Positions 3,631 to 26,625 of a stretch of DNA of 64,000 nt are shown here, piece by piece. This stretch comes from a virus: positions 34,972-98,971 of the IMG/VR virus record IMGVR_UViG_3300035459_000118; one strand, written 5' to 3'. Positions within the stretch are counted from its first letter, which is position 1, and every line of letters begins with the position of its first letter. The notes under the pieces were generated by a model. That model did no database searches. It worked only from the letters and a program-made list of their open reading frames with translations, and was not told where the DNA came from. The position numbers were made by a program, and so were the translations under genes.

Positions 3631-5202
3631 ATGTCATTATTAAAGCGCAGGGTGGTCGATGTCTCCGCCGAGGAGGATATGTTAACGGGGATGATCGTCA
3701 GTGATACTTTTTGTCGCGATGTAGCAAAGTTGGTCAGTCCATACACTATAGAAACACCATACATCGCACGAATTATCAAATGGTGCCAAGAATATTATTA
3801 CAAGCATAAAGAAGCTCCTGGGATGCTCATCCAGAACATCTTCAATGCTGAAAAGGATAAGATTGATCCAGCCGAACAAGAAGCTATTTCAGGCATCCTC
3901 GTCAAATTGTCCGAACAATATGCCACTTCAGAAATTAACGTCGATTACTTCAAGGATCGTGCAATGGAGCTTATTCGTTCCAGGGCACAAAAATATGCAG
4001 CAACACAAATCCTCTCTCTTAATGAGATTGGCAAAACAAAAGAAGCAGAAATTATCTTCAAGGAATATCACACAATATCAATAGAAACTTCTGGCTGGGA
4101 AGACCCATTCAATCCTGCCGTTATTCGAAATCACTTTGTTGATGAGCAACTCCGCAAAAGCTATCTTTTCCAACTAAAAGGGGAAGTAGGGAAATTTATT
4201 GGCCCTTTTGAACGCAACTGGTTAGTAGCATTCATGGCTCCAGTCAAAAGAGGTAAAACATTTTGGCTTATAGAATTGGCACTGCAAGCAGTCTTTATGG
4301 GGAGGAGGGTCATTTTCATCTCACTTGAAATGAACCTGGAAAGAGTAAGAAGAAGGTTTTACAAACGGTTGACCTCAATGGTCAACGAAACCCTTGATTA
4401 TATTTTCCCTGTATTTGATTGCTTAAAAAATCAGGACAATACTTGTAATAAAAAAGAGAGAGCAATTGATATGAGATTGCTTGATTCAGAAGGTAAAAAA
4501 CCAATCTACACTAGAGAGCTAAAATACAAAGCATGTGAAGCTTGCCGAGGAACAAAAGATTTTATCCCAGCTACTTGGTTCACAACCAACAAAGTCGAAA
4601 AGATGAAAACCCAGAAAGCAATAAAACTACTCGATGCTCAAGCCAAACATTTTGGTTACAATACGAATTTTGGGAGCAACATCAGGACTCTTGCTTATCC
4701 GGCATTTTCTGCCAATCTTAGCCGGGTAAAAAGGGATATAATGAATCTGGTTGAATCCGGACATTTTATTCCAGATGTTATCGTAATCGATTATGCTGAC
4801 ATTCTTGCTCCAGAGGATTCCAGGATTATTGGTCGAGAACGAATAGATCAAACCTGGAAATCCTTGAAAGGAATAAGCGATGAAATGCATTGCATGGTTG
4901 CAACAGCCAGTCAATCAAACCGTGGTTCTTTTGAAAAAAAGAACGTGGTTCAGACTGATGCGTCTGAAGATATCCGTAAACTTGCTAATAGCGATTTATT
5001 TTTAGCAATAAATCAGACCCCACAAGAAAAGAAAGACAGCATAACAAGAATCTCAAGAATCGCTTGTCGCGATGAAAATTTTGATCAGTACGAGGGGGCA
5101 ATCGTGTTGCAACAACTTGCCCTTGGTCAAATTTGCCTTGATAGTTATATGGATAGGCCTACTACGGTATCGCAAATTTCTTATGAAGATTTTTTTGTAT
5201 AA
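3631..5202 (+). CDS. dnaB: Replicative SF4 helicase (DnaB/gp41-like)
   Basis: Walker A APVKRGKT, ISLEM, VIVIDYAD, TASQSNR, SEDI. Confidence 0.9.
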   Translation: MSLLKRRVVDVSAEEDMLTGMIVSDTFCRDVAKLVSPYTIETPYIARIIKWCQEYYYKHKEAPGMLIQNIFNAEKDKIDPAEQEAISGILVKLSEQYATSEINVDYFKDRAMELIRSRAQKYAATQILSLNEIGKTKEAEIIFKEYHTISIETSGWEDPFNPAVIRNHFVDEQLRKSYLFQLKGEVGKFIGPFERNWLVAFMAPVKRGKTFWLIELALQAVFMGRRVIFISLEMNLERVRRRFYKRLTSMVNETLDYIFPVFDCLKNQDNTCNKKERAIDMRLLDSEGKKPIYTRELKYKACEACRGTKDFIPATWFTTNKVEKMKTQKAIKLLDAQAKHFGYNTNFGSNIRTLAYPAFSANLSRVKRDIMNLVESGHFIPDVIVIDYADILAPEDSRIIGRERIDQTWKSLKGISDEMHCMVATASQSNRGSFEKKNVVQTDASEDIRKLANSDLFLAINQTPQEKKDSITRISRIACRDENFDQYEGAIVLQQLALGQICLDSYMDRPTTVSQISYEDFFV

Positions 5203-5213
5203 ATCTTCAACAA

Positions 5214-5234
5214 TTCATTAAAGAGGGGTATAAT
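5214..5234 (+). promoter_or_regulatory. Phage promoter motif copy 2
   Basis: ttcattaaa-gagg-ggtataat. Confidence 0.75.
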
Positions 5235-5301
5235 CATAATACAGAGGATTGGGAGTTACCCAAAATAAAAAATAGAAGAACAAAATGAAAGGAGAAAGAA
5301 G

Positions 5302-5898
5302 ATGGAAAAGGCAAGATTGATCGAGGGAGTTACCACACTGAACGCAGCGGAGTACGAAGTCGATGGGAAGAAACTGCCCATCATTACCGAAAAGATCAAG
5401 TACGTCGCCGTCAAGCTGGAAAAGATCGAAGCGGCATTCAAAGCGGCATGTGAAGGCGTCGCCGGCAAACCCCAGGAGGAATTCGTTCCTCAGCTCGTCG
5501 TCGACGTGTACAATGAATTGGTCGAACCCGCTGCTGCATCTGCCGAGGCCGAAGCAGCTGCTGCCGCCACTACCGAGACAACCGCAACAGAGGCTGCCGG
5601 AACCAAAGCCGAGGAAAAGAAGGCAGACACCAAGGCAGATGCCAAGAAAAAGGCTCCCCCGGCTCGGGCAAAGGATGCCTTCGGCAACGCCATCGGTTCC
5701 ATGACCGGTGAAATCGCTGCTGCCCTGGTCACCGGAGCGAAAAAGGAAGACATCGTCAAAACCCTGATGACCAAATTCGGCCGGACCCAGGAAAAAGCAG
5801 AGGCGTACCTCAAGGGATGCCTCAAGTCGTGGAAGGAACGAGGATTCCAGATCACGGTAAAAGACGAAGTCTACACCATGGCTCTCCCCAAGAAATAA
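5302..5898 (+). CDS. Ala/Glu/Lys-rich putative DNA-binding protein
   Basis: Own promoter and strong RBS, biased codons, low-complexity linker, basic helical C-terminal domain. Confidence 0.5.
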   Translation: MEKARLIEGVTTLNAAEYEVDGKKLPIITEKIKYVAVKLEKIEAAFKAACEGVAGKPQEEFVPQLVVDVYNELVEPAAASAEAEAAAAATTETTATEAAGTKAEEKKADTKADAKKKAPPARAKDAFGNAIGSMTGEIAAALVTGAKKEDIVKTLMTKFGRTQEKAEAYLKGCLKSWKERGFQITVKDEVYTMALPKK

Positions 5899-5928
5899 CA
5901 TCACGGGGGACTGGGTTTTTCTATCAAC

Positions 5929-5961
5929 TTTCCGGGTCGGGAACCTTCTCCGACCCGGAAA
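5929..5961 (+). terminator. GC-rich hairpin (terminator or mRNA-stabilising stem)
   Basis: tttccgggtcgg/ccgacccggaaa 12-bp stem; no clear U-tract. Confidence 0.45.
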
Positions 5962-6050
5962 AGATAATTCCACTCAGGGGAAATCTGCCCTGTTCAACAG
6001 TGTAAAGCAACCTACAACTCAATAAGAGAAAGAAAGGAGGAATACCACCA

Positions 6051-6800
6051 TTGAAAACCGAAGGGGCAACTATCTCTCACCTTCTGAAGAAGGTTTACCT
6101 CGGCGGGATCGTGGAAGAAGCGATCGTAGACTTTGGAGCCAACACAGTCCAGGCTGTCGATCCGACCAATTCCGTTTTTCTTAAGGTGTCAGAAAAACCT
6201 TCGGGGGACGGCATCGGCAGGGTTGGGATTGGAAGCCCAACCCTTTCCATGATCATCAAGCATTTTGATGCAATCAAAGGCGAGATTGCCATCACCCACG
6301 AAAACAATCGCCTGGTCGTAGGGGCAAAAGGTCGAGGAGAGGTAAGGTACCTCACCGTCAAAGAAGAATTCGTAGCCAGTGCTGTCGCTGAGGACAACAT
6401 TGGCGCACTCGTTGACCCCTGCATACTCACAGCCACATTGCCGGCACAGTCCTGCTCCGATTTCATGGCCTACATGGCTTTGGTAAAAACCAAGTCTGCC
6501 AAGTTCCGCTATTCCCAAAAAACCAAGACCGTTCATATCGAAAGTGGGCTGGAAAGCGAACACCAGTTTAATGTCCCGGTCGGAGCGGCAGAATTACTGA
6601 CCGATGATAAACCCGAAGACTTCTCTGTTATGGTTTACGGCAGCCATATTGACCAGATCTTCGGTGTTCTGGAATGGTCGGAAAAAGAAAAACCAGCCAT
6701 CCTCATGGCTCCGAACCATCCCTTGCTCATCGTTCAGAATGACGAAAACATTTGGGCTTGCCTCCCGTTGACGGAGTCGGCCGAAGAACAACAATCGTAA
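6051..6800 (+). CDS. Sliding clamp (gp45/PCNA-like)
   Basis: 249 aa (two-domain clamp size), QAVDPTNSVFL resembles the PCNA N-terminal motif, directly upstream of the clamp loader. Confidence 0.65.
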   Translation: MKTEGATISHLLKKVYLGGIVEEAIVDFGANTVQAVDPTNSVFLKVSEKPSGDGIGRVGIGSPTLSMIIKHFDAIKGEIAITHENNRLVVGAKGRGEVRYLTVKEEFVASAVAEDNIGALVDPCILTATLPAQSCSDFMAYMALVKTKSAKFRYSQKTKTVHIESGLESEHQFNVPVGAAELLTDDKPEDFSVMVYGSHIDQIFGVLEWSEKEKPAILMAPNHPLLIVQNDENIWACLPLTESAEEQQS

Positions 6801-6823
6801 GGAAACCGGCAGGAGCTGAGCGT

Positions 6824-7768
6824 ATGCAATCGAATCTCTCGCAGTTTATCTGGTACGAAAAACACCGCCCATCAATGCTGGACGAAATGACTCTTCCCGT
6901 CCAGTATCGTCGCGCTTTCGAAGGTTACCTGAAAGAAGGGAATCTTCCGCACTTGTTGTTTCATGGTCCCCAGGGTAGCGGGAAAACCACGTTGGCCTTC
7001 GTTCTCATGAACAACATCGACTGCGTGCGGATGATTTTGAACGCTTCGTCGAGCGACCGTGGCGTTGAAACCATGCGAGGAAAAGTGAAGCAATTTGCCT
7101 CAAGCCGAACAGTTGACGGCTCTCTGAAAATCGTGTTTTTTGACGAGAGCGACGGTCTGACTCCTCAGGCACAAGAGGCGCTGCGAAACACTATCGAAAC
7201 ATATGCCCAGACCTGCCGGTTTATTTTCACCTGTAACGAGATCGACCGTATCATTGGTCCACTTCAATCTCGTTTTACCATTTTTGAATTCTCGGCGTTT
7301 CCACTTGATCAGGTTATTCAACAAGCTGAAAAGATCTTGGTCAAGGAACGCATCGAATATGATATAGAAAGCGTCAAAAAAATTGTCAACCAGCATTATC
7401 CAGATGTAAGAGCAATAATTAATAATCTCCAGTTATGTTCATCTGGAGGCGATTTAAATCCCGAAACAGTTTCCAAAACAACCGTTGACCCGGCGTTGTT
7501 GCTTGATTGCATTGCCAACGGGGAAGTTGCAAAGATACGGAAAATGCTCGTTGGGATGTCAAACTTCGTATTCGTCTACCGTTACCTGTTTGATACTCTA
7601 TTGATGTGTGACGACCTCACACAAGAGCAAAAGATAGAAATAACCCACGCCTTGGCCGAAGGGCTTTACCGTGACGCGCTGGTTGCCAATCGGGAAATCA
7701 ATTTCATCGACTGTGTTATAAACATTATGGGGATTATTAAATGCCCCACCATTTCATTTTTGGGATGA
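6824..7768 (+). CDS. Clamp loader AAA+ subunit (gp44/RFC-like)
   Basis: WYEKHRP, GPQGSGKTT, LNASS.RG, FDESD, LQSRF; AGGAG RBS before ATG 6824. Confidence 0.92.
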   Translation: MQSNLSQFIWYEKHRPSMLDEMTLPVQYRRAFEGYLKEGNLPHLLFHGPQGSGKTTLAFVLMNNIDCVRMILNASSSDRGVETMRGKVKQFASSRTVDGSLKIVFFDESDGLTPQAQEALRNTIETYAQTCRFIFTCNEIDRIIGPLQSRFTIFEFSAFPLDQVIQQAEKILVKERIEYDIESVKKIVNQHYPDVRAIINNLQLCSSGGDLNPETVSKTTVDPALLLDCIANGEVAKIRKMLVGMSNFVFVYRYLFDTLLMCDDLTQEQKIEITHALAEGLYRDALVANREINFIDCVINIMGIIKCPTISFLG

Positions 7769-7772
7769 ACAA

Positions 7773-8210
7773 ATGCCCCTTGACCTTTTTGGTTTCATAG
7801 AAAATTTGTTTTCTAAAAAGCAATTCATAGATTCCAGGGAGCCGTATAAAGAGACCTATATGGCGATAAAGTTTTTGTCGCTATATCCCGGGACATTTAT
7901 AATTGCTGCCGTTGCCAACCGGCTTTCCTCAAAGATACCGGCTTGGGCAACTAATGTCTTTTTATTCAACACGATCAAGAAACAAAGGCCTCCTCATTTT
8001 CAGTATCCAAAGGCAGAAGAGAAAGAAAAACAGAAATGGCCCAAAGAAGCCATTCAAAAAATATGTAACAAGTTTTGTTGTTCCGAAGAACATGCTATAC
8101 AAATTTTGCAAATTTTATCAATGAAGGATCATCAAATTCTTGAATCTCTTGGCATAGGGCCAGAAGGAGAAAAGAAAAGTGGCAACAAAAAGAATCGAAG
8201 AGTTCCTTAG
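7773..8210 (+). CDS. Clamp loader small subunit (gp62-like)
   Basis: Size, position after gp44, N-terminal LFGFIENLF, C-terminal helical segment. Confidence 0.6.
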   Translation: MPLDLFGFIENLFSKKQFIDSREPYKETYMAIKFLSLYPGTFIIAAVANRLSSKIPAWATNVFLFNTIKKQRPPHFQYPKAEEKEKQKWPKEAIQKICNKFCCSEEHAIQILQILSMKDHQILESLGIGPEGEKKSGNKKNRRVP

Positions 8211-8667
8211 TAAAGGTGCAAAGCCGGACCCGGTCAGGCAATTTGAAAAGCTTTCCGCCGGCAAAAATAAAGAAGAAGTTCGAGAACTGGAAATGGCGAT
8301 GCTTACTCCAGAACCAATTCCACAATACGTCGGCGAAGAACAACGGTATATCATGAACAGCGAATTTACCGTGAAAATGGTCTTTGCCTCACAAGAGGAC
8401 ATGGACTTCTTTGGTCGATTCATACCAATTGCCAACTATATGGAAAAATCTATAACCGACCTCAAGATCATGTTCGACCTTTTCCGTTCTATAGATGCCG
8501 GCAAAATTTCTTATGATAAAAAGACCGGAGTTTTTCAAATAGAAGCAGAAAAGTCAATAGAGTTACCAAAACTCCCCACCCCTCCATCTGCAAGAACAAT
8601 TATTGAAGGAGTAAAAATCATTGGAAACGACACAACAACACCCATTAAACGATTCTTCCGCCGTTAA
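8179..8667 (+). CDS. Hypothetical protein with C-terminal IKRFFRR tail
   Basis: AGGAG RBS; overlapping GTG start. Confidence 0.6.
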   Translation: MATKRIEEFLSKGAKPDPVRQFEKLSAGKNKEEVRELEMAMLTPEPIPQYVGEEQRYIMNSEFTVKMVFASQEDMDFFGRFIPIANYMEKSITDLKIMFDLFRSIDAGKISYDKKTGVFQIEAEKSIELPKLPTPPSARTIIEGVKIIGNDTTTPIKRFFRR

Positions 8668-8685
8668 ATAGAAAAGAATATAAAA

Positions 8686-9567
8686 ATGCCAAGACCCCAT
8701 AAATATAAGAAAAGACAAAAAGACCTAGGTGGTCCTTGTCCAATTTGTGGAGAACCAAGGAAACTATATAAAAAGACTTGTTCAAAAGAATGCAGTTCTA
8801 CCTTGAAGTCTAGAACTTTAAAGAAAATGTATGATTCTGGAGAATTAGATTTTTTAAAAGATATTCAAAAAATAGTTGGGACTGGGAACCTTGTCGCATT
8901 TAACAAAACAGAAAAAGGCAGAGAAAATGCTTCTGTTGCTTGCATAAAAAGAAATACAATCCATGGGAACCCTACAGAGAAAGAAACAATACGAATAAAG
9001 ATAAGTTCTTCTAGAAAAGAAGGATTGGCTTCTGGAAGAATTCAAAATCCAATGTTAGATCCGATAAAAGCCAAAGAAGCTGGGAGAAAAAGAAAAGCTG
9101 CCTATGATTCTGGTGAAAAAGTTCACCATATGAAAAACCCCTTAGTGGTAAAAAAAGTAAGCGAATCTCTCAAAAAAGCCTATGCATTAGGGAAAATAAC
9201 CCCAAATAGTGTTGTTTATCGGTGTCATTACCATAGAGGTTGGTATGTTGATAAGAATGGTAATTTCCAATTTTATGCAAGCAATTGGGAATTTTTAAGA
9301 ATGGAATTTTTAGATAGCTGTACAGATATAAAATGGAGAAAAATTAGACAAGAATACCGAATCCCATATATCGATATGACAGGAGTACATAGAACCTATT
9401 TTCCGGACTTCGAGGTTCAATTTGGTGATAAAATAATTATAGAAGAAATTGGAATTCATACAGAAGAAAAACAACATAAAATAAGATGTGCTAAGGAATA
9501 TTTTAATAACAAAACAGAAATTTTTGTTGCTCTTGGAGGAAACCAATTAAATGAAAGAACTTGGTAA
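8686..9567 (+). CDS. Putative homing endonuclease (zinc finger, NUMOD-like repeats, TnsA-like PD-(D/E)xK domain)
   Basis: CPIC..CSKEC, basic repeats, YASNWE..IPY..RTYFPDF..IIEEIG; AT-rich. Confidence 0.7.
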   Translation: MPRPHKYKKRQKDLGGPCPICGEPRKLYKKTCSKECSSTLKSRTLKKMYDSGELDFLKDIQKIVGTGNLVAFNKTEKGRENASVACIKRNTIHGNPTEKETIRIKISSSRKEGLASGRIQNPMLDPIKAKEAGRKRKAAYDSGEKVHHMKNPLVVKKVSESLKKAYALGKITPNSVVYRCHYHRGWYVDKNGNFQFYASNWEFLRMEFLDSCTDIKWRKIRQEYRIPYIDMTGVHRTYFPDFEVQFGDKIIIEEIGIHTEEKQHKIRCAKEYFNNKTEIFVALGGNQLNERTW

Positions 9568-10996
9568 AGATATTGACCCGCTGGAAATAGAAATCAGAAC
9601 AACCGCACAACGATGGCTCAATAATAACAAGAACCTTTTAATTTCTGGAAGTGACTACCAAAGCCCAAGAATTAGCAGTGAAATCCCTGATTGCAGTATG
9701 CCGCTCAGCATGGATACGTATAAATTTTGTTCTCTAAGTTGTTGTTATTGTTTCAGTTTTTTCTTTAAAGCAAATAATCCAGCAATAAAAAATTCTGAAA
9801 CAGGAATGGATCTTACCAGTATTAATGCAAAAAAATTTATAGCTGCAATTTCTGGAAAACCTATTGACAGTCGTGGAGCTATGATGCATAAGCTTTTCTA
9901 TAACCGTAAATTTCTTTTACACATAGGAGGATTGGCTGATCCCTTCTGTAATTTCGAGGCAAAAAACGGAGTAGGCTATGAAATAATGAATGCTCTGGGT
10001 GATTTGAACTACCCCACTTTATTCTCTACCAAAGGAGCCAATGTTGCATTAAGCAAAAAGTATACCGACCTCTTCGAAAGGTATGCCAAACAAAACAACT
10101 TCGCCTTTCAAGTCAGCATGGTGACCAATGATAAAAACATGGCTTCCAGGGTAGAAATTGGAGTCCCATCCCCAGAACAAAGAATCGAATTGATTCGTCG
10201 ATATAGTGCTATGGGGTATTGGACAATCCTCCGGTTACGACCTTATATTATTGGTATTACCGACGAGTCAATCGACAGTCTCCTGGAAGATGCTCTGGCA
10301 GCTGGCATCAATGCAATCAGCATGGAATTTTACGCTCTTGATGCAAGGGCTTCAGGGGAAGCCAAAAAACGCTACGATTGGCTCGGAAAGATCGTTGGCG
10401 CCAAGAACCTCATGGAATACTTCGCTCGACTTTCTCCCGGTGAACGTGGGGGATATCGTCGGTTGAATCGTCTTGTCAAAGAAATCCATGTCAAGAAGGT
10501 CTACAAGTTCTGTATCGAACATGGCCTAGAGTTTGGTTGTTCAGACCCTGATTTCAAGGAACTCACCACGACCGGATCATGTTGCGGGATGCCAGACAAA
10601 TACGAAAAGAATCATCTTCTGGAAAACTGGACCCGCCAGCAGATGACATTCCATCTTAAGGAAGCAAGAAGAATCTATCATTTAACCGGCAAATTGAATA
10701 CTTTCCGGTTTACCCAGGTATACAAAGACGAACCATATTTTGACTATCCTGGCCTAAGTCACGATCATGTTTGTGAAACAAGTATGTGCGCAGCCGACCG
10801 GGTAAACCTTACTTACCGTAGAATCCTACGCAACTATTGGAATAATCTCCGTTCGTATGCTGCTCCCCAAAACTACTTTCATGGGAAAGTCATCGCTTGC
10901 GGGATGGATGAAAACAAAGATTTGATCTATACGTATAATCCTATGCCGTATGAGAAACATTGGGCTGAAGAGGGGATTGACTTGAAAGGAAAGTAA
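9551..10996 (+). CDS. Radical SAM enzyme (spore-photoproduct-lyase-like family)
   Basis: CSLSCCYC CxxxCxxC motif, GGLADPF, STKG, RLRPYI, SCCG. Confidence 0.85.
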   Translation: MKELGKDIDPLEIEIRTTAQRWLNNNKNLLISGSDYQSPRISSEIPDCSMPLSMDTYKFCSLSCCYCFSFFFKANNPAIKNSETGMDLTSINAKKFIAAISGKPIDSRGAMMHKLFYNRKFLLHIGGLADPFCNFEAKNGVGYEIMNALGDLNYPTLFSTKGANVALSKKYTDLFERYAKQNNFAFQVSMVTNDKNMASRVEIGVPSPEQRIELIRRYSAMGYWTILRLRPYIIGITDESIDSLLEDALAAGINAISMEFYALDARASGEAKKRYDWLGKIVGAKNLMEYFARLSPGERGGYRRLNRLVKEIHVKKVYKFCIEHGLEFGCSDPDFKELTTTGSCCGMPDKYEKNHLLENWTRQQMTFHLKEARRIYHLTGKLNTFRFTQVYKDEPYFDYPGLSHDHVCETSMCAADRVNLTYRRILRNYWNNLRSYAAPQNYFHGKVIACGMDENKDLIYTYNPMPYEKHWAEEGIDLKGK

Positions 10997-11562: not shown

Positions 11563-11571
11563 GAGGAGAAA

Positions 11572-12669
11572 ATGGGAAACAAAAAAGTCAGGGTCGCTAT
11601 CATCGGGGTTGGGAACTGCGCATCGTCATTGGTGCAAGGTGTGCACTATTATCGGAATGCCAACGAAAAAGAAACAGTCCCAGGATTGATGCATGTCAAC
11701 TTGGGAGGGTACCATGTGAACGACATCGAATTTGTTGCAGCCATCGACGTTGCCGCAGCCAAAGTAGGCAAAGATCTTAACGAGGCGATCTTTGCCGGCG
11801 AGAATAATACGATTTGTTTTGACCAAGGACTCGTCAATATCCCAAGCGGAGTTACCGTCCAGAGGGGAATGGTCCATGATGGCATTGGGCAGTATCTCAA
11901 GGAGGTCATCCCAATTGCTCCTGGGTCGACCGAAGATATCGTTCAGCTGCTGAAAGACACCCATACCGATGTGGTCGTGAACTATTTGCCGGTCGGTTCC
12001 GAAGAAGGAACAAAATGGTATGTAGAACAAATCCTGCAAGCCGGTTGTGCCATGGTCAACTGCATTCCTGTTTTCATCGCCTCGGCACCGTTCTGGTCAA
12101 ACAGGTTTAAGGCAAAAAATCTTCCCATTGTGGGGGATGACATCAAATCGCAGGTCGGAGCGACAATTACGCACCGGGTATTATCGTCTCTGTTTCAGGC
12201 TCGGGGAGTCCGCCTTGACCAAACATACCAACTAAACTTTGGTGGCAATACGGATTTCCTCAATATGCTGGAACGTGGCAGGCTGGAGTCAAAGAAGATT
12301 TCCAAGACCAGTTCAGTCCAGTCTACTATGGAAAAGGAATTGAACTGTAACGATATTCATGTCGGTCCTTCAGACTATGTTCCGTTCCTCACCGACCGTA
12401 AGTTCTGTTACATCCTCATGGAAGGAACCACGTTCGGCAATGTTCCCCTGAAGCTCGAACTCAAGCTCGAAGTCTGGGACAGCCCCAACAGTGCCGGCGT
12501 CGTGATTGATGCCGTCAGGTGTGCAAAATTGGCTTTTGACAATGGGGTGTCAGGAGCCTTGAAATTACCCTCGGCCTATTTCATGAAACACCCAGCCGAG
12601 CAAATCGAGGATACCATTGCGAAGCTGAAGCTGGAAGAATGGATCAAAATGATTGGAGAAAAGGAATGA
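11572..12669 (+). CDS. ino1: Myo-inositol-1-phosphate synthase
   Basis: [60 protein letters not shown]; full length with intact motifs. Confidence 0.97.
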
Positions 12670-13370
12670 AAACAATACCAGGATTTGAGTTTCGGGAAGA
12701 TTCTAATGCAGACATACGAGCCTTTTCCGAAGCTCGACATGACTGGAAATTGTTTACGTTCCCTGGAGAGGCAAGGGTCTTGGACTTGGGTGCCCATATA
12801 GGGATATTTGCCTATTTTGCGGCACCCAATTGCCGTAAACTCTTGTGTGTAGAACCATCACGAGAATCGTTCAATATCCTCGAACGCAATGCCAAGCTGA
12901 TAAAAACCGTATTCCCAGCAGTGGAAATAGAAACACTTCCCGCTGCAGTGGTTCAAAGCGAATTGAACGGACAAAAAGTCCAGCTTTACCAAAAGAAAAA
13001 TTCCGAAACCAGCGACACCCTCCTCCCAACTAGGGGGAGGGTCGGAAGTTCAACCATGGGGGTAGGCATCCTGGAACTCTGCAAAAGGTTCCTCCCCACC
13101 ACAATCAAATGTGACATAGAATGTTCCGAATACAATGTCATCCCAGAAATCCTGTCATTCTCAAGCATACTGGAAATTGGGATTGAATTCCACCGGCTCC
13201 AACAGGGAGACAACTTGGAAAGGGCTAAAGCCATTTCCGAAGCCATCATCAATAACTGGGGAGGAGGCCATGTTATTATTAAACCTCCTGTTTTTGACAA
13301 AAAATATTGGAATACTGTAGCCATATACAGGCGTAACCTTTCCTCAAGATTCAGGAAGAACAATGGATAA
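12666..13370 (+). CDS. FkbM-family SAM methyltransferase
   Basis: [25 protein letters not shown]; ATGA overlap with ino1. Confidence 0.85.
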
Positions 13371-14481
13371 ATCCGTCGAAAGCGTCAGGAAAATTGCCGC
13401 CGAAGCCGATCAATGGAAGAACTTTGCCGATTTTTGTCGACTTGAAATGGCGGTAGGTGGGCCAGACCCTCACATGAAGTTGACCGCAGCAATGTGCAAT
13501 CTAGATTCGTGTCCCTGGTCAGAAAAGGCATGGAGGGGACTTTGTTACCTTGGAGTTTACAATGTTCCCACCGCCGAGCAAATATGGAATGCGTGGCACT
13601 TTGAGCGATCTATCATTGAGAGGGAAGAATTTCTTCCTTGGTTTACCAAACACTGGCAAGGGATTGCGCTCCGTCGGGAGCGTAAAAGTGCCCGTAGCCC
13701 AATCAAGATGGCAAAGTATTTTGAAACCGCTTCTGCTTGGCTTTCTGAAGCACTCCTTGATAAAAAAGAAGGGATCGGATGGATCGGAGGGATGAAAGAT
13801 TTATCCCCTTTTGACCGTTACGAATTTGCCTGGGAGAATGTCCAGCAAATATACTCGATGGGTCGCTACATTGCTTTCAAGTATCTTCAGTATGGGATGC
13901 AATATCTTGATTTCCCTATCAATCTGCAAGATATCCGAGCAAAAGGAGGATGGTCTCCTCGTGCCATGTTGGCAATTCTTTGGCCAGATCAGGCAGTTCC
14001 TATCCTGGGAGGGGATTCTCCAGAAGAAATTGCAGTTGTTGATACGTATGCTGCGAAAACAAAAGCATATTTATTAGAAGGGTATGGAGTAGACCTCTCT
14101 TGGTATAATTTGCAGGTCTTGCTATGCGACTACAAACAATGCTATGTTGGGAAAAGGCAATTCCCAGGGAGAAGTCAAGATAGTGAAATTGCCTATGCCA
14201 AGAAGATTGAAGATTATTGGGGAGGCGATACAATTATGTGGGAGGCTCGCTCCATGATCTTTCCTCATCAAGCCCTAGGAGAAATGAATGGTTGGTATTC
14301 TGTCCGTGAAGAATTAGGCAAGGTCCTTTACGACCATGGATATATGTGGTCTGATCTGATTTACGATTACAATCTTTCAAAAACCCGTCTTGCTACTCCA
14401 GTGAAACACGGGGAGAAGCCAGGGAAAAGTCAAAAAACCCTAGCCTGGGAGTCAGGATTCGGGAGGTTTTTTAAAAAGTGA
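13363..14481 (+). CDS. Amino acid:DNA transferase (aGPT-PPlase2/ADDT-like, HhH-glycosylase fold)
   Basis: GGPDP N-terminal motif, RRERK, HhH-like MGRYIAFKY, SPR, QVLLCDYK..FPGRSQD matching the E-x-x-L-C-x-x-K..Y-P-G pattern. Confidence 0.75.
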   Translation: MDKSVESVRKIAAEADQWKNFADFCRLEMAVGGPDPHMKLTAAMCNLDSCPWSEKAWRGLCYLGVYNVPTAEQIWNAWHFERSIIEREEFLPWFTKHWQGIALRRERKSARSPIKMAKYFETASAWLSEALLDKKEGIGWIGGMKDLSPFDRYEFAWENVQQIYSMGRYIAFKYLQYGMQYLDFPINLQDIRAKGGWSPRAMLAILWPDQAVPILGGDSPEEIAVVDTYAAKTKAYLLEGYGVDLSWYNLQVLLCDYKQCYVGKRQFPGRSQDSEIAYAKKIEDYWGGDTIMWEARSMIFPHQALGEMNGWYSVREELGKVLYDHGYMWSDLIYDYNLSKTRLATPVKHGEKPGKSQKTLAWESGFGRFFKK

Positions 14482-15542
14482 GCACCTTAAAGGTCCATAC
14501 TATTATTCCCGGAAAACTATACCAGAGAGGGGAATTTGTTAAACTCTCATTGAAAGAGAAGTTGAGCGAACTACAAAGGCTCAGGGTGAATATCATCGTC
14601 AACCTCTGGAATATCCCAGACATTCTTTTGAAGGATGAAATTCCTTATTATTATCACCTTCCAATCCCAGACAGCACCATAAAAGATAGTCAGTTATTGC
14701 TACATACCGTAAAAGAAGTTGCGCAGCTAATCAAAAATGGTGGAAATGCTATTGTTCATTGTCATGCTGGAAGAAACAGGAGTGGGTTGTTCAATGCTTT
14801 GTTGTGTATGAACTTATTGGGGATGTCGGGTACCGAGGCAATAGAACATGTCAGAAAACGCAGACCAAATGCGCTGGCGAATGAAAACTTCGTGAAGTTT
14901 ATTCTTGAACAAGGAGAAAATAAGATGCTCACGCGTAGAATAATCGCCATTGGTGGAGTCCCAGGAACAGGAAAAACCTGTTTGGTCAGAAAATTAATGG
15001 AGCCGGAAGATCAATGGGGTTGTTGCGAACTTGCAAAACTCTTGGTTGCCGAATATAACAAAACACTCAATTTATACGTTTTGGGGAAATACGAAAAAGG
15101 CGAGGTTTTCGCTGGAACCGATCGGCTTTCCATGGCCGTCCAGCCAGAAGCACAAAAATGGGTTGAATCAAGTTGTTCCAATATCCTTTTCGAAGGAGAC
15201 CGGCTTTTCAATGGATCTTTTCTGAGCTTCCTTTTGACCTTGCCGAATACTGAATTGCTCGTGATTTACCTGAAAGCCTCAGAATTTGAACTGAGGAAAA
15301 GATATCAACAACGAGGTTCCGACCAATCCTTACAATTCCTGAAGGGAAGAGAAACAAAATACGCCAAAATCAGACAAGATATGAGGCTCCGAAAATTCAG
15401 TTGCGAGTTTGCCCATGAAACCCCAGAAGATACAAAAAAGATCATTGCCACTGTTCAAGCCTTTCTTTCCACTGGAACTTTACCCCCTACATTGCAAACC
15501 GCTGCCCCCACAGGAATCATGAGCTTCCTTAAAAAGAGGTAA
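14478..15542 (+). CDS. CX5R (PTP/DSP) phosphatase fused to P-loop nucleotide/DNA kinase (5-hmdU-kinase-type family)
   Basis: PIPD loop and HCHAGRNRS; then GGVPGTGKT, VLGKY, FAGTDRLSMAVQP, ILFEGDRLF. Confidence 0.82.
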   Translation: MSTLKVHTIIPGKLYQRGEFVKLSLKEKLSELQRLRVNIIVNLWNIPDILLKDEIPYYYHLPIPDSTIKDSQLLLHTVKEVAQLIKNGGNAIVHCHAGRNRSGLFNALLCMNLLGMSGTEAIEHVRKRRPNALANENFVKFILEQGENKMLTRRIIAIGGVPGTGKTCLVRKLMEPEDQWGCCELAKLLVAEYNKTLNLYVLGKYEKGEVFAGTDRLSMAVQPEAQKWVESSCSNILFEGDRLFNGSFLSFLLTLPNTELLVIYLKASEFELRKRYQQRGSDQSLQFLKGRETKYAKIRQDMRLRKFSCEFAHETPEDTKKIIATVQAFLSTGTLPPTLQTAAPTGIMSFLKKR

Positions 15543-15544
15543 CA

Positions 15545-18500
15545 ATGTTTACACACCTGCATGTCCATAATCACTTCAGCTACCTCGATGGCTTCGGTAC
15601 CGAAGAAGAATACATCAAAAGAGCCAAAGAACTCGGAATGACACATCTTGCTATCACAAATCACGGGAACGTGGATGGCAATATCAAATTTCAAAAAGCC
15701 TGTAAGAAAGCTGGGATCACCCCCATCCATGGGTGCGAACTCTATGTTATTCCTGATGAATATCAAAAACCCAAAGGCGAAAAAAGAGGACATATAATCG
15801 TCCTTGTTAAAAACGCGAAGGGATGGCAGAATCTTTGTCAAATGCTCACCATCGCCCACCTTGAGGGCTTCTACTATAGGCCTCGCATCGGATACAAGAA
15901 TTTTCTGGAACGGTGCGAAGGGTTGGTCGTTCTGACAGGCTGTTCTTCTTCGTTTTTAGCAAAAGACACCACCGACAAAGCACTTGATTTCGTTTCCGCA
16001 TTGTATGACAAAATAGGGTCAGATTTATATCTGGAAACAATGCCCCACCGTCTGGAAGAACAAGACAAACAAAACGCTCTGTGCCTCGATTTTCAGGGAC
16101 AAGTAGGAAATATTAAGCTAGTTGCCACCAACGACTGTCATTATATCCATCCCGATGAAGCCGAATCCCAAGAAGTTCTTTTGGCAATTCAAACCAAAAA
16201 GAAATGGTCAGAAACCGACCGTTATCGCTTTACTATCAGAGGGCTTTACCTCAAGTCAGAAGAAGAAATGCGCCGAGCATTCAAATTACAAGCAATTCTC
16301 TCTGATTCCCAAATCGATCAGGCATTTGCTTCAACGATGGAAATAGCTGAAAAATGCCAATTTCTGATTCCTAAACAGGACATCTCTCTCCCAAAAGTTC
16401 CTGGATATGAAAACGAAGACCCAGGGAAATTTATATGGGACCTAGCCGAGAAGAAACTCTTAAAAATCAGCGAAAATTGGTCGACTGAAAAGATCAATAT
16501 ATACTTGGACCGGCTTTCAGAAGAATGGAAGTTGATAAATTCAAAGAACTTCAGTCAATATTTTATGATCATCTGGGAATTAACTTCTTGGTGCCGTAAG
16601 AATAAAATACCCGTTGGCCCTGGCCGTGGCAGCGTAGGAGGGAGCCTTCTGGCTTATCTTTTGGAAATCACTACGTGTCTAGACCCCATTGAGTATCATC
16701 TTTTGTTTTCTCGTTTTATCGCAGAAGACCGTATTGATTATCCTGATATCGACTTAGACTTTGCCGATATAGAACGTCTTAGAATTCGCGAACATCTTGA
16801 AGCCCTTTATGGGAAAGATCACATTTCCTCCCTTTCCACATTCACAACAATGAAAGGAAGGGGTTGTGTTCGTGATGTTTGCCGGGTATTTGAAGTTCCA
16901 ATATACGAAGTCGATGCATTGGCAAAATCTATTTTTGAAGACCCAGAATCAGATGAAAGTGGCGTTGAAAATGTTTTAAAAAACACCGATTTTGGGAAGG
17001 TATTTCTTGAAAAGAACCCCAAGGTATGTCAGCATATTCTAAAGCTGGAAGGTCAATGCCGTGGAGCCGGCCAACATGCAGCGGCAATAATGATTTCCGG
17101 AGAAAGCCTCCGCAACGGGACAAGAGGCAACCTTGTCATGCGCTCCGAGGAAACCGTCACCAATTGGGATATGGGGGACTCTGAATACGTAGGATTAATG
17201 AAACTCGATGTCCTTGGGTTGAATACCCTTTCCGTATTAGAAGAAGCCAAACGGCTCATTATCAAAAACTCAGCAAAAACAGGGTTTGATTTCGACTCAA
17301 TCCCATTGAATGATGAAAAAGTTTACCAGAGTCTTTATGAAGGAAACACCAATGGAGTTTTTCAGTTTTCAGCTTGGGCGACTACCAATCTTGCCAAACA
17401 ACTTAAAGCAACCAATATTTTTGAACTCGCCGACATCATCGCCCTAGTAAGGCCAGGTCCAGCAGACAGCGGACAAACCGACTTGTATATTAAACGAAAG
17501 AACGAAGGGTTGGAATGGCAACCAAAGCATCAAATTTATGAAGAAATAACTAGGAATACTTTTGGCATCATCGTGTATCAAGAACAAGTAATGGAAGTTA
17601 TTCATAAGGTCGCTGGATTACCTTATGCTACTGCTGATAAGATTCGCAAGATCATTGGTAAAAAAAGAGATGTTAAAGAATTCCAGCCTTATAAGGATGC
17701 CTTTATACAAGGTTGCGCAAAGATGAAAACCCTCTCCCATAAAGAGGCTGAAGAATTCTGGGAGATGCTTGAAAAACACGCACACTATAGTTTTAACAAA
17801 TCCCATTCTATCGCCTATGCCCTTATCGGTTATTGGACTTCTTGGATAAAGGTCCATTTCCCCGTTGAATTCATCTGCGCTTCTCTTACTTACGGTTCAG
17901 AAAGCAAGAAAGAAGATCTCCTACAAGAAGCCTTCGATATGGGGTTGAAAATCATTACCCCCAAAATTGGTATTTCTGATGCAACAGTATGGGTAGCAAA
18001 AGACGACTCCCTCTATATCCCATTCAATGAAATAAAAGGGGTCGGAGATACGACCGCCAAGAAACTGAGTGAGGTTAAAGAAGCCGCAATTCCTATACGC
18101 AAGGGCTTCTTTTGGCCAACCAAGCAAATTAAAGCTCCTCAAAAATCGGTTAATAAAAAAGTAGACTCATTGCTTGCTCAAATTGCCGAGGCTGAAAATA
18201 CTTCTAAAGATTTATCGGAATTCTTCTCTTTCAAAATCCCTTCTGATCGGCAAAAAAATTACGATATTCTGAAAAGAACTATACCTCAATTTGACGGGAA
18301 CAAAAGATGGTTGAACCTCGATGTCCCTGAAATTAAAAGCAACCAACCATTAATTTATGAAAAATCTTTTGTCCCAAAACGATCGCTCGGAAGATGTAAC
18401 GATTGCGAACTGCACAAGGAATGCGACGGTCCAGTCCCATCTTCGCCAGGAATATTCAATGTCGGAATAATAGGAGAGGCTCCAGGATTTGATGAAAATC

Positions 18501-18919
18501 AACAAAAGAAAGGTTTTGTTGGTAAGTCTGGGAAGATGCTTTGGGATGAACTGATAAAATATGATCTTCGGAGAGAAGACTTCCATGTCGGTAATGCTGC
18601 TAAATGTTATCCCGGGATCAACAAAACTCCATCTGCCGAACAACTGAAAATTTGTTCAGAAAAATGGTTGTTCCCCGAACTAAAAGAAATTGACTGTAAA
18701 TTGATACTGGCTTTTGGCAATTGTTGCCTCCAGGCATTTATGGGGAAGAAATCGGGGATAACTCAGATAAGCGGAACCACGGAATGGTGCGAGAAAGCTG
18801 GAGCCTGGATATGCTTTTGTGTTCACCCCGCATTTGTTTTAAGAAGCCCAGAAAATAAAAACCTCTTTAAGTCTGGAATTAAAAACTTCGTCGATAAAAT
18901 TCGTCTATTAGAAGGGTAA
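15545..18919 (+). CDS. dnaE: DNA polymerase III alpha with C-terminal family-4 uracil-DNA glycosylase domain
   Basis: PHP HLHVH..SYLDG, GPGRGS, PDIDLDF, KLDVLG, YSFNKSH; C-terminal CNDC..GEAPG..FVG..KCYP..C..HPA. Confidence 0.95.
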   Translation: MFTHLHVHNHFSYLDGFGTEEEYIKRAKELGMTHLAITNHGNVDGNIKFQKACKKAGITPIHGCELYVIPDEYQKPKGEKRGHIIVLVKNAKGWQNLCQMLTIAHLEGFYYRPRIGYKNFLERCEGLVVLTGCSSSFLAKDTTDKALDFVSALYDKIGSDLYLETMPHRLEEQDKQNALCLDFQGQVGNIKLVATNDCHYIHPDEAESQEVLLAIQTKKKWSETDRYRFTIRGLYLKSEEEMRRAFKLQAILSDSQIDQAFASTMEIAEKCQFLIPKQDISLPKVPGYENEDPGKFIWDLAEKKLLKISENWSTEKINIYLDRLSEEWKLINSKNFSQYFMIIWELTSWCRKNKIPVGPGRGSVGGSLLAYLLEITTCLDPIEYHLLFSRFIAEDRIDYPDIDLDFADIERLRIREHLEALYGKDHISSLSTFTTMKGRGCVRDVCRVFEVPIYEVDALAKSIFEDPESDESGVENVLKNTDFGKVFLEKNPKVCQHILKLEGQCRGAGQHAAAIMISGESLRNGTRGNLVMRSEETVTNWDMGDSEYVGLMKLDVLGLNTLSVLEEAKRLIIKNSAKTGFDFDSIPLNDEKVYQSLYEGNTNGVFQFSAWATTNLAKQLKATNIFELADIIALVRPGPADSGQTDLYIKRKNEGLEWQPKHQIYEEITRNTFGIIVYQEQVMEVIHKVAGLPYATADKIRKIIGKKRDVKEFQPYKDAFIQGCAKMKTLSHKEAEEFWEMLEKHAHYSFNKSHSIAYALIGYWTSWIKVHFPVEFICASLTYGSESKKEDLLQEAFDMGLKIITPKIGISDATVWVAKDDSLYIPFNEIKGVGDTTAKKLSEVKEAAIPIRKGFFWPTKQIKAPQKSVNKKVDSLLAQIAEAENTSKDLSEFFSFKIPSDRQKNYDILKRTIPQFDGNKRWLNLDVPEIKSNQPLIYEKSFVPKRSLGRCNDCELHKECDGPVPSSPGIFNVGIIGEAPGFDENQQKKGFVGKSGKMLWDELIKYDLRREDFHVGNAAKCYPGINKTPSAEQLKICSEKWLFPELKEIDCKLILAFGNCCLQAFMGKKSGITQISGTTEWCEKAGAWICFCVHPAFVLRSPENKNLFKSGIKNFVDKIRLLEG

Positions 18920-18927
18920 CTTATTAT

Positions 18928-19740
18928 ATGATAATTTATAAAATTGAAAATAAAATTAATGGTAAAATTTACATTGGAAAAACAACAAAATTATTAAATC
19001 AAAGAATTGCTGGTCATATAAAACAAAATCACTCTCGTATTCAAAAAGCCTTAAGAAAATACGGGATTGAATCTTTTATAATTTCTACTATTGATTCCGC
19101 AACTTCGCAAGAATCCCTCAATGAAAAAGAAAAGTATTGGATTAAAACTTTGAATTGTCAACACCCTAATGGATATAATTTTACTATCGGTGGAGATGGG
19201 GGACCAACATGGACAGGAGGAAGACACACCCAAGAAACAATAAAGAAAATGAAAGAAAGAAAATTTTCAGAAGAACATAAACAAAAATTAAAAGGTCCTA
19301 AATCAGAAGAACATAAACAAAAAATTTCAAAAGCTCTTTCCGGAGAAAGAAATCCTAATTATGGGAAGCCTCTTTCTGAAGAAACAAAATTAAAAAAGAG
19401 ATTAGCGATGTTAGGGAGAAAAGATTCAGAAGAAACAAAACTAAAAAAGAAAAATGCAGCGACAGGGAAACATCCTTCTGATGAAACGAGGATTAAACAA
19501 AGGGAATCGCATTTAGGGCAAATTTGGAGCGATGAAGCAAGAGAAAAAAGTCGAAAAGCCCATTTAAATAAATCACATATTTGTAGCGACGAGACAAAAG
19601 AAAAAATACGTAAGTCTCGCTTAAACATAAAGCATTCCAAAGAATCAAAAGAAAAAATGAGTAAAATCAAGAAAGGGAAACCATGGAATCAAGCGAGAAG
19701 AGATGCATATAATAAAAAATATCAAAAACTTCGTCAATAA
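18928..19740 (+). CDS. GIY-YIG homing endonuclease with NUMOD3 repeats
   Basis: IIYKI..KIYIG, GYNFT.GG, SEEHKQK/SEETK repeats; AT-rich. Confidence 0.9.
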   Translation: MIIYKIENKINGKIYIGKTTKLLNQRIAGHIKQNHSRIQKALRKYGIESFIISTIDSATSQESLNEKEKYWIKTLNCQHPNGYNFTIGGDGGPTWTGGRHTQETIKKMKERKFSEEHKQKLKGPKSEEHKQKISKALSGERNPNYGKPLSEETKLKKRLAMLGRKDSEETKLKKKNAATGKHPSDETRIKQRESHLGQIWSDEAREKSRKAHLNKSHICSDETKEKIRKSRLNIKHSKESKEKMSKIKKGKPWNQARRDAYNKKYQKLRQ

Positions 19741-19765
19741 AATTTATCTGCTGCAAGGGAATTAA
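19721..19765 (+). pseudogene. Displaced original 3' end of dnaE-UDG
   Basis: Encodes IKNFVNKIYLLQGN*, versus the current end IKNFVDKIRLLEG* at 18878-18919. Confidence 0.8.
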
Positions 19766-19767
19766 AA

Positions 19768-19788
19768 TTCATTAAAAAACGGTATAAT
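19768..19788 (+). promoter_or_regulatory. Phage promoter motif copy 3
   Basis: ttcattaaa-aaac-ggtataat. Confidence 0.75.
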
Positions 19789-19811
19789 AAAAATACGGAG
19801 GAGAATATAAA

Positions 19812-20147
19812 ATGGCTTCAAGATTCAATATGTCCAAAGCTCCCGAAAAAGCGGAAGAACCCAAACCGATCCTTATTCCTGTGAAGTCCTCGACGCTTGA
19901 TGCTATTGGGTATGATCGGGAAAAGGAAGAATTGACCATCGCATTCAAAGGTGGGTCCCAGTACCTTTATACGAAGGTTCCCGCCAAGACATTCGATACC
20001 CTTATGACTCCGCCCGAAGGCTCCTCGCATGGGAAGTTCTTCCACTCTAACATCAAAGGGAAATTTGATTTCGTAAAAATCAAGCAGGGCATCAAGAAGG
20101 AGAAGAAGGCAGGAGCAATAAATGATAACAATAACAACTCCATATAA
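19812..20147 (+). CDS. KTSC domain protein
   Basis: VKSSTL.AIGYD..L.I.F..G..Y.Y..VP..SHGKFF..NIK. Confidence 0.88.
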   Translation: MASRFNMSKAPEKAEEPKPILIPVKSSTLDAIGYDREKEELTIAFKGGSQYLYTKVPAKTFDTLMTPPEGSSHGKFFHSNIKGKFDFVKIKQGIKKEKKAGAINDNNNNSI

Positions 20148-20328
20148 GGAAAAAAGACTCGGAGTTGGGGAATGTGTTACTCTAACATATGAACATGCAA
20201 AAGCACTAGAGTCTTTGTTAGCACGTACAAATTTTGGATATGGCGATCAAATTAAAATCATTAATAGTAAAGTTTTTGTTTTAAATGAACAAGAAGAAGA
20301 AACAGATCAAGAAGAAATAGAAATATAG
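20122..20328 (+). CDS. Small hypothetical protein
   Basis: GGAG RBS; AT-rich. Confidence 0.5.
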   Translation: MITITTPYKEKRLGVGECVTLTYEHAKALESLLARTNFGYGDQIKIINSKVFVLNEQEEETDQEEIEI

Positions 20329-20338
20329 GACTGTAATA

Positions 20339-20878
20339 ATGTCATTTGAAACTCCCGACCTCAATTATGCCGAAGACATCAAGGTAGACCCATACAACCT
20401 TGACCTTGAATGGGCTCAGTTGCCAGGTTTGCATTCCAAGTGGGCAACCAGGCTTATTGAGGTTGAGAATCAGCGCGACCGGCTCAGGGAACAGATCGAG
20501 CTGAAATATGCCGAATTGGATCTGGAAATCCGATCCAACCTCGCGCAATACAAACTGGGAGAAGGCTCTCCGGAACGTGCGATTAAATCCACCATCGTAA
20601 AGAATGAACAATATAAAACCCTCCAGCAGCAATACCTGAACGCGAAGTATGCGGCGAAAGTCTTGAGGATCGCCGTTAAGGGAATAAAAGATAAAGAGAA
20701 AACCATCGATCGTTTGACCAAGCTCTATCATGATCAGTATTACATGAAGCCGTACAAAGGCAAAGAGGAGGGTGAGTTGTCAGAAAGAAAGCCGGAAGAT
20801 GAGGCAACCGAAAACACGGCAGGGGCAACGGCAGCCCTTAATGCCCATATGAACGTAAAAAGGTTTTTCAGGAGATAA
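20339..20878 (+). CDS. Recombination mediator (UvsY-like)
   Basis: DIKVDPYNLDLEW, helical coiled coil, located near ssb and uvsX. Confidence 0.7.
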   Translation: MSFETPDLNYAEDIKVDPYNLDLEWAQLPGLHSKWATRLIEVENQRDRLREQIELKYAELDLEIRSNLAQYKLGEGSPERAIKSTIVKNEQYKTLQQQYLNAKYAAKVLRIAVKGIKDKEKTIDRLTKLYHDQYYMKPYKGKEEGELSERKPEDEATENTAGATAALNAHMNVKRFFRR

Positions 20879-21401: not shown

Positions 21402-21426
21402 TTAAATCAAAGTGAAAGGAGAAAGT

Positions 21427-25131: not shown

Positions 25132-25144
25132 AGTGAGGTATAAT
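25124..25144 (+). promoter_or_regulatory. Phage promoter motif copy 4
   Basis: ttgattaaa-gtga-ggtataat. Confidence 0.7.
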
Positions 25145-25219
25145 AATTTTAAGGAAGGCAAAGGATTTATTAATATTGATTATGATACTCTTACTGTTAA
25201 TGGAGTCCCGTTAGAACAA

Positions 25220-25911: not shown

Positions 25912-25925
25912 ATCTTTGAAAAAAG

Positions 25926-26208: not shown

Positions 26209-26212
26209 GATT

Positions 26213-26305: not shown

Positions 26306-26324
26306 TTTATTTTTATTATTTATT

Positions 26325-26406: not shown

Positions 26407-26425
26407 TTTTTAAAGAAAGAAAAAA

Positions 26426-26611: not shown

Positions 26612-26625
26612 GAAAGGAAACTACC

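Follow-up and report, generated by a model that had tools for sequence, protein, structure and literature searches.

C-terminal tails shared by DNA-acting proteins of an uncultured phage are candidate docking peptides for its sliding clamp

The window analyzed here, a stretch of 64,000 nucleotides, comprises bases 34,972 to 98,971 of a single 98,971-bp phage contig (IMG/VR record IMGVR_UViG_3300035459_000118). Between 3.6 and 25 kb its plus strand carries a replication/recombination module, in which proteins as different as DNA-modifying enzymes and a UvsY-like mediator end in the same short, basic and hydrophobic tail. It is reasonably probable that these basic tails are docking peptides for the phage's own sliding clamp, encoded at positions 6051 to 6800; both the role of this clamp as a hub in a lineage that uses a DnaE polymerase and the binding itself we infer by analogy with T4-like phages. 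The first-pass annotation had read five related C-termini, and all five were confirmed: the DnaB-like helicase (QISYEDFFV), ORF 8179 (TPIKRFFRR; ORF, open reading frame), a homologue of amino-acid:DNA transferase (ADDT; SGFGRFFKK), a phosphatase-kinase (TGIMSFLKKR), and the UvsY-like protein (MNVKRFFRR). Also present was KDLSEFF in the linker of the fusion between DnaE and a uracil-DNA glycosylase (DnaE-UDG; residues 888 to 894, window 18206 to 18226). A single shared motif was, however, upheld for the four basic tails only, since the helicase tail, like KDLSEFF, is acidic and thus of another flavour. The gp32-like protein, absent from the earlier list, is a further carrier with a Leu-Leu variant, RRTLLRR.

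Across the 148 ORFs (31,454 amino acids) of the genome, RFF[RK][RK] occurred three times, in each case as the last five residues of a protein (ORF 8179, ADDT, and the UvsY-like protein), and 4 of 10 occurrences of F[FL][RK][RK] were C-terminal. Related loci were IMG/VR and metagenome contigs reached via clamp homologues, and a regular expression fixed from the window motif before 13 of these loci were scanned found the motif at six C-termini where 0.29 were expected (P about 7e-7). The tail pattern is far beyond chance. Moreover, the three RFF tails are encoded by different codons, so the motif exists at the level of protein. With a net charge of +3 to +4 across the final 20 residues, the tails are strongly basic; they lie in disordered segments, with linkers that vary in length and sequence and, in ORF 8179, a predicted local distance difference test score (pLDDT) below 50. 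Given these variable disordered linkers and the conservation of the tails in orthologues, they behave as short linear motifs. Conservation among homologues was seen for the ORF 8179 family, the closest ADDTs, and some kinases, but not for the FF pair of UvsY or for distant helicases. Likewise, a hydrophobic residue three positions before FF is found in the basic window tails (I, F, I, and V) but varies in the ORF 8179 family.

The modification cassette (11572 to 15542) encodes, in order, myo-inositol-1-phosphate synthase (MIPS), a methyltransferase-like ORF, ADDT, and a dual-specificity phosphatase fused to P-loop nucleotide kinase 3. ADDT (13363 to 14481; Pfam PF18724) has a C-terminal extension ending in GFGRFFKK (14455 to 14478). 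This extension and tail were confined to 7 of 118 homologues, namely the window protein and the six nearest to it (68 to 76% identical), in which a variable stretch of 8 to 20 residues ends in [GR][KRG]F[FL][KS][KR]; the remaining 111 finish with the conserved core (DLxxPVxR), and the tail is therefore a lineage-specific addition. The last codons of ADDT, GGG AGG TTT TTT AAA AAG TGA (14455 to 14481), include a Shine-Dalgarno-like GGGAGG and overlap the GTG start at 14478, so that the tail-coding DNA may serve a dual purpose, as tail and as ribosome-binding site of the next gene. That gene encodes the phosphatase/kinase (14478 to 15542; Pfam DSPc and Ploopntkinase3) with tail GIMSFLKKR (15513 to 15539). 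About 11 of 148 representative homologues have a variable linker and a terminal [GS]-h-x-x-F-h, the tails being either basic (GIMGFLKKK, GIMKFLRR, and ILNFLKKR) or acidic (SLDDFFS, SMDDFFA, and SLEDFF). MIPS (11572 to 12669; Pfam PF01658, E 4e-35) lacks a tail and serves as an internal control, because its substrate is a metabolite. The tails had also been taken to imply that the enzymes act on DNA. This was already known for ADDT and 5-hydroxymethyldeoxyuridine (5-hmdU) kinases, which act on DNA after replication (PMC8989533); hence it is no new inference. In the cultured T4-like Caulobacter phage Cr30 (L024; NC_025422, 49306 to 54833), an annotated inositol-1-phosphate synthase lies a few genes from a homologue of the window P-loop kinase (38% identical), and the inositol-kinase link is therefore not unique to the window contig.

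ORF 8179 (8179 to 8667) consists of a globular domain (residues 1 to approximately 125), a disordered linker, and the tail PIKRFFRR (8641 to 8664). An alignment of nine family members (A2) showed a conserved domain of approximately 125 residues followed by a linker variable in length and sequence, with indels, and a conserved tail pattern [RK][RK][FL][FL][RKL][RK]. The tails recorded were PIKRFFRR, PIRKFFRR, PGRKLLRR (twice), PIRKFFLRRKSA, TRRKLFRKRNS, AVRRFFRR, and ASRKFFLRRKQA. Position 4 is I, G, R, V, or S, and LL replaces FF in some members, including the homologues P0024 and P0026, which end in RKLLRR. With the tail kept in eight of nine members, the suggestion that this orphan belongs to the same set as the modifying enzymes is plausible. 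The AlphaFold2 model had a pLDDT of 62 overall and below 50 for residues 125 to 155. No fold or family could be assigned by Pfam or PHROG, by VIA (best Z 3.3 across the whole set), by BFVD (none at E < 0.1), or by the ESM Atlas. RegA, suggested by the place of the gene after the gp62-like gene, was rejected (hhalign probability 0.1).

A clamp fold had been proposed for the product of 6051 to 6800, and structure prediction bore this out. The AlphaFold2 model of the 249-residue protein, made with 20 homologues (pLDDT 90.1; predicted TM score 0.87), contains two topologically repeated beta-alpha-beta-beta-beta domains and an interdomain loop, consistent with a two-domain clamp of the PCNA/gp45 type. 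VIA matched it to Archaeoglobus fulgidus PCNA (1rwz; Z 19.6, 219 aligned residues) and T4 gp45 (6drt; Z 19.5, root-mean-square deviation 2.6 over 214 of 230 residues), followed by DnaN and 9-1-1 clamps, and Foldseek retrieved PCNA and DnaN (E 1e-10; TM 0.65 to 0.73). The sequence itself had no Pfam or PHROG match, a PDB profile search returned nothing at E < 0.6, and tblastn against 50,697 phage records found nothing. As with gene 45 in T4, the clamp gene lies directly upstream of the loader genes, which encode a gp44-like AAA+ large subunit (6752 to 7768; Pfam AAA, DNA_pol3_delta2, and Gp44_lid; 34% identical to T4 gp44, E 4e-37) and a gp62-like small subunit (7773 to 8210; phrog_225, clamp loader, E 4e-12). 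The clamp is also the most acidic of the replication proteins (isoelectric point 5.0; net charge -12) and has an acidic C-terminal tail. Acidic clamp and basic tails are complementary, which agrees with the finding that affinity for PCNA rises by as much as four orders of magnitude when flanking charge is positive (PMC6881253).

The strongest support for clamp docking is an argument by analogy and comes from three independent T4-like lineages. The first, G004, is a 247-kb IMG/VR contig with the T4-like gene order gp45-gp44-gp62-regA-gp43, reached via a kinase homologue ending in SLDDFFS. Exactly four of its 391 ORFs end in L-x-D-F-F-[NS]: the family-B polymerase gp43 (KVDSLEDFFN), a TET/JBP dioxygenase (TSDLADFFN), ADDT (KSALEDFFN), and the kinase. 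Its gp45 was detected by blastp with T4 gp45; searches with the A1 clamp profile and Pfam PF02916 returned no clamp in G004 and were uninformative by their own control. Two cultured phages show the same arrangement with other tails. In Salmonella phage SKML-39 (Ackermannviridae), gp43 ends in VNLLAMMQKKKG (NLLAMMQKKKG), the HMUD2 5-hmdU DNA kinase in SLLDLMKKG, ADDT in VNLMALLKR, and a phrog_4789 protein in VNLLSLMRK. All five instances of [KR][KR]LW in the 49,429 amino acids of Vibrio phage D506 form the last four residues of a protein, namely of gp43, HMUD2, ADDT, an HMUDK_hel protein, and the phrog_4789 orthologue. Both SKML-39 and D506 encode gp45 homologues. Tails that are specific to a lineage, yet alike within a genome for the polymerase and the modifying enzymes, are expected of ligands of a single co-evolving pocket, and for T4 gp43 (tail EKASLDFLFG) and the RB69 polymerase it is experimentally established that the tail binds in the gp45 pocket (PMC6212786). 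The phrog_4789 proteins are small and of unknown function (D506, L055:15591-15890, 99 amino acids, ending in KTKRLW; SKML-39, L049:18062-18277, 71 amino acids); from their tails they are candidate new gp45 clients, perhaps like T4 gp33.

Relatives of the window phage carry comparable tails. In the closest (L001; approximately 60% amino acid identity), a single TET-associated glycosyltransferase (TAGT; PF20691; L001:5172-5975) replaces the inositol/ADDT/kinase cassette between the DnaQ-like exonuclease and DnaE and ends in GSGILNFMKKR; the modification cassette is swappable, with the tail retained. In distant lineages, whose clamps are 25 to 29% identical, carriers included a TAGT (L003; RGISKFL), an N6/N4 DNA methylase (L013; LRRLFLKWKK), and an SNF2 helicase (L004; IKKFIKKL), and gp62-like subunits end in PEKFFGIKT (L012) or PKHIFGLK (L004). 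In these sequences the motif follows action on DNA rather than enzyme family, and it is absent from the metabolite enzyme MIPS. The obligate clamp partners of the lineage carry the same motif flavour, in the DnaE linker (RKGFFWP or NDGFFKRKK) and at the gp62-like ends.

The remaining carriers belong to replication and recombination. The UvsY-like mediator (20339 to 20878; phrog_231, E 6e-5) ends in NVKRFFRR (20852 to 20875); its Pfam UvsY match (E 0.005) fell below the cut-off. The gp32-like single-stranded DNA-binding protein (SSB; 21412 to 22587; Pfam gp32, E 1.5e-5) has a Thr/Ala/Gln-rich linker and the tail RRTLLRR (22552 to 22572), its C-terminus being PPRRTLLRRPPAV, and a 54%-identical orthologue in G001 ends in SGRRLLLRRNK after a similar linker. 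The gp32 homologue of a distant relative, G002 (L003:19016-20056), has a run of approximately 60 Asp/Glu residues and then a Lys-rich end, which contrasts with the uncharged linker and RRTLLRR of the window protein. The DnaB-like helicase (3631 to 5202; Pfam DnaB_C, phrog_19) carries its acidic aromatic tail, QISYEDFFV, at 5173 to 5199; close orthologues end in NYIDEYFE or DLTKDFSI, and distant ones lack a tail. The helicase tail belongs to a separate, acidic motif class. It may, together with KDLSEFF, bind the same clamp pocket, a behaviour that the acidic G004 tails seem to show, or it may contact another protein instead. In T7, acidic aromatic C-terminal tails of gp4 and gp2.5 contact the polymerase. 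Directly after the helicase gene of another relative, a NUMOD3-domain (homing-endonuclease-like) protein (L002:8254-9081) ends in LNLSEDFFE, nearly the same as the NYIDEYFE of the preceding helicase and as the DnaE island LSEFF. DnaE-UDG itself (15545 to 18919) joins a Pol III alpha (Pfam PHP, DNA_pol3_alpha, and finger) to a family-4-like UDG (Pfam UDG), and alignment of its linker showed two FF islands, RKGFFWP (18098 to 18118) and KDLSEFFSF (18206 to 18232). Both are kept in L001 (HKGFWP and INEFFSF) and L004 (NDGFFKRKK and AQEYFKF), and the surrounding linker varies. The C-terminal GIKNFVDKI of DnaE-UDG was considered as a kinase- or TAGT-like tail and not counted; it directly follows the UDG HPxxVLR motif and is probably the last helix.

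Taken together, basic tails of the form [RK][RK]-F/L-F/L-[RK][RK], which form or lie close to the C-terminus and are borne on a flexible linker, would act as short docking peptides. The hydrophobic pair would insert in the partner-binding pocket of the clamp, and the flanking Arg and Lys would contact both the acidic surface of the clamp and its C-terminal tail, likewise acidic. On new DNA, clamps that stay behind would thereby concentrate the thymidine-hypermodification enzymes (the kinase and ADDT), ORF 8179, and probably also gp32 and the UvsY-like protein, and modification would be coupled to replication, much as for DNMT1 and UNG2 with PCNA or T4 gp33 and gp55 with gp45. Both DNMT1 and UNG2 are recruited to PCNA, DNMT1 via a PCNA-binding motif (PMC9690074).

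The nearest known system is gp45 of T4 and RB69, to which short C-terminal tails bind (gp43, also gp33 and gp55, and a loop of the ligase). Common to both are a short hydrophobic or aromatic C-terminal cluster present on several phage proteins and a clamp of gp45/PCNA fold whose gene adjoins those of gp44/62-like loaders; as in T4, the gp43 homologues of G004, SKML-39, and D506 bear the tail themselves. In contrast, the window tails are basic (RFFRR) and those of T4 acidic (LDFLF), the window polymerase is a DnaE-UDG with internal motifs only, and the proposed window clients comprise DNA-hypermodification enzymes together with gp32 and a UvsY-like protein; none of them turned up as a gp45 client in the literature searched. 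The first-pass annotation had described the tails as of PCNA-interacting peptide (PIP) box form, which could not be sustained: they do not match the canonical Qxx[LIVM]xx[FY][FY], as Gln at position 1 is found in the helicase only and is replaced in the other four by T (ORF 8179), E (ADDT), P (kinase), or H (UvsY), with FF or FL at positions 7 and 8. Eukaryotic and archaeal PIP boxes do share an aromatic pair in a disordered region and positive flanks that raise affinity (PMC6881253), and archaeal ones are also C-terminal. They differ in the Gln, and the window clamp resembles PCNA by fold only, without sequence similarity. Neither do RFFRR, RFFKK, or SFLKK satisfy the PCNA-interacting motif of AlkB homologue 2, APIM ([KR][FYW][LIVA][LIVA][KR]; PMC6881253), having F/R or L/K at positions 3 and 4. 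With the bacterial beta-clamp system (QL[SD]LF) the window shares the Pol III alpha family, and the FF islands directly follow the helix-hairpin-helix domain, as in Escherichia coli alpha, whose internal clamp motif is 920-QADMF-924 (PMC3201878); unlike three-domain DnaN, the 249-residue clamp has two domains, and the motif sequences differ.

A further set of tails was observed in the same phages. This second shared C-terminal motif, P-L-[KR]-[KR]-[SA]-[ILV]-[DE]-[LF]-COOH, was found twice in the genome against 0.04 expected, once in the window (25079 to 25462) and once at 25880 to 26767 of the genome (9091 to 8204 bases before the window start), and in relatives at L018:4362-4613, L018:10868-11473, and L021:15193-16770. 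Its variants are GPLKRSIEL, IPLRRAIEL, GQKRSLDF, PLKRSLDF, and YPLVKSVDF, and the carriers have no Pfam family. It resembles the SLDFLF clamp tail of T4 at least as much as RFFRR does.

Several observations weigh against the docking of the basic tails on the clamp. The window DnaE-UDG lacks a terminal tail: its KIRLLEG end is probably the final helix of the UDG domain, and its FF islands are all internal. The decisive match between enzyme and polymerase tails is thus missing in the window lineage, which makes the clamp argument for the window one by analogy, and the islands are known from three orthologues only. Three UvsY orthologues have tails that are basic and lack FF (MRLISRKKKDGD, KSIMRSSKQNP, and LKISMRRRKK), and neither gp32 nor the UvsY-like protein is a classical client of a clamp. 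The basic RFFRR, the acidic EDFF, and a third C-terminal class (PLKRSIEL or KRSLDF) coexist in one genome, and at least one of these probably binds something else; the third marks other proteins of the same phages, and more than one docking site or hub is therefore likely. Lastly, the kinase of Cr30 and the glucosyltransferases of T4 itself lack a tail, hence the arrangement is not universal.

The coexistence of motif classes also bears on a second explanation, that the tails dock on another hub of the replisome, most plausibly gp32 or gp32-coated single-stranded DNA, the helicase, primase, or DnaE being alternative hubs. In that case RRTLLRR could underlie the cooperative association of gp32 with itself, and mimicry of it could bring the other proteins to the fork. 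The second and third motif classes, which make more than one hub likely, favour such a scheme, as does gp32 itself, with its conserved tail variant on a disordered linker and without the acidic tail through which T4 gp32 contacts its partners. UvsY and UvsX are also classical gp32 partners in T4, which again speaks for gp32. Nevertheless, we know of no precedent for an SSB that takes up a basic-aromatic tail from its partners, and this counts against it. The TAGT of L003 keeps its tail though the gp32 end of that relative differs, being acidic and then basic, and clamp-loader small subunits have FF ends in distant relatives. Furthermore, members of these enzyme families end like the polymerase in the three T4-like lineages, and the partner of that tail is gp45 (PMC6212786). 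We regard a protein hub other than the clamp as unlikely.

A third explanation dispenses with a protein partner and takes the tails as nonspecific nucleic acid anchors, Arg and Lys contacting phosphates and Phe stacking on bases. All carriers act on DNA, the tails have the net positive charge noted above, the UvsY orthologues stay basic without FF, and a GIY-YIG endonuclease encoded outside the window ends in TTRFIRKK, all of which would fit. An anchor of this kind would, however, not account for a hydrophobic pair fixed at the very end across families, nor for the acidic SLDDFFS and SLEDFFN in the same position of homologous kinases, which cannot anchor DNA; and generic basic tails such as that of the gp62-like protein (KKSGNKKNRRVP) have no hydrophobic pair. 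This makes anchoring quite improbable. Coincidence or a nucleotide-level by-product, such as ribosome-binding sites in the last codons, is suggested by GGGAGG-TTTTTT-AAAAAG before the GTG at 14478, which looks like a Shine-Dalgarno sequence and spacer, and by AGGAGA within the UvsY tail, but is effectively refuted by protein-level conservation with differing codons in dozens of homologues in different contexts, by the extreme statistics, and by the tail codons of ORF 8179 (CGA TTC TTC CGC CGT), which hold no Shine-Dalgarno-like signal.

Elsewhere in the module, two unknown ORFs and then a DnaQ-like exonuclease gene lie between ORF 8179 and the modification cassette, and the cassette is followed, in order, by DnaE-UDG, a GIY-YIG endonuclease, the UvsY-like protein, gp32, a RecA/UvsX-like protein, and a flap endonuclease. 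The most conserved protein of the module is encoded at 9551 to 10996 (481 amino acids; 75% identity in L001 and 52% in L003) and matched phrog_13321, of unknown function, and radical-SAM below threshold (E 0.04); its homologue in L003 adjoins the TAGT and a radical SAM/SPASM protein. Upstream of the clamp, a 198-residue protein (5302 to 5898) conserved at this place in relatives has a central linker rich in Ala, Glu, and Lys, a weak PHROG match to a DnaD-like helicase loader (E 0.003), and the C-terminus VYTMALPKK, with VYKLFKK and IVRFAKKK in orthologues. The long minus-strand ORF that a greedy gene caller placed at 5218 to 5973 is an artefact, antisense to the true plus-strand gene at 5302 to 5898. 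Megablast of the region against the 50,697 phage records gave no match, and hence no close cultured phage; the best DnaE matches, in Streptomyces phages, were only 35% identical, and IMG/VR scans with ADDT, the C-terminal part of DnaE, P0152, P0157, and P0189 recovered no relatives.

Within the library searched, we found no paper that links phage hypermodification enzymes with the sliding clamp, and PMC8989533 makes no mention of a clamp, gp45, or the replisome. The logic of clamp docking is known; the client class and the motif flavours are new. We give slightly better than even odds to a broader proposition, namely that clamp tethering is a general and so far undescribed organizing principle of phage DNA hypermodification, with lineage-specific tails that are acquired and co-evolve with the tail of the polymerase. 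It would embrace 5-hmdU kinases, ADDT/aGPT-Pplase, TET/JBP dioxygenases, TAGT glycosyltransferases, and DNA methylases across unrelated lineages, and would apply to cultured relatives of ViI (Ackermannviridae), for whose enzyme families in vitro work already exists; in vitro assays of modifying enzymes may improve on clamp-loaded DNA. If true, a shared C-terminal tail would find new clamp clients and DNA-modifying enzymes, such as ORF 8179 and phrog_4789, and would provide an annotation rule for uncultured phages, by which a clamp client is a protein whose last five to eight residues are the same as those of the polymerase or of one another. Hypermodifications of thymidine and cytosine are made after synthesis and must be finished before host nucleases attack, and how the enzymes reach new DNA fast enough is unaddressed in the pathway literature searched. 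A docking tail shared with the polymerase would be a concrete and testable answer, parallel to that of eukaryotic DNMT1 and PCNA.

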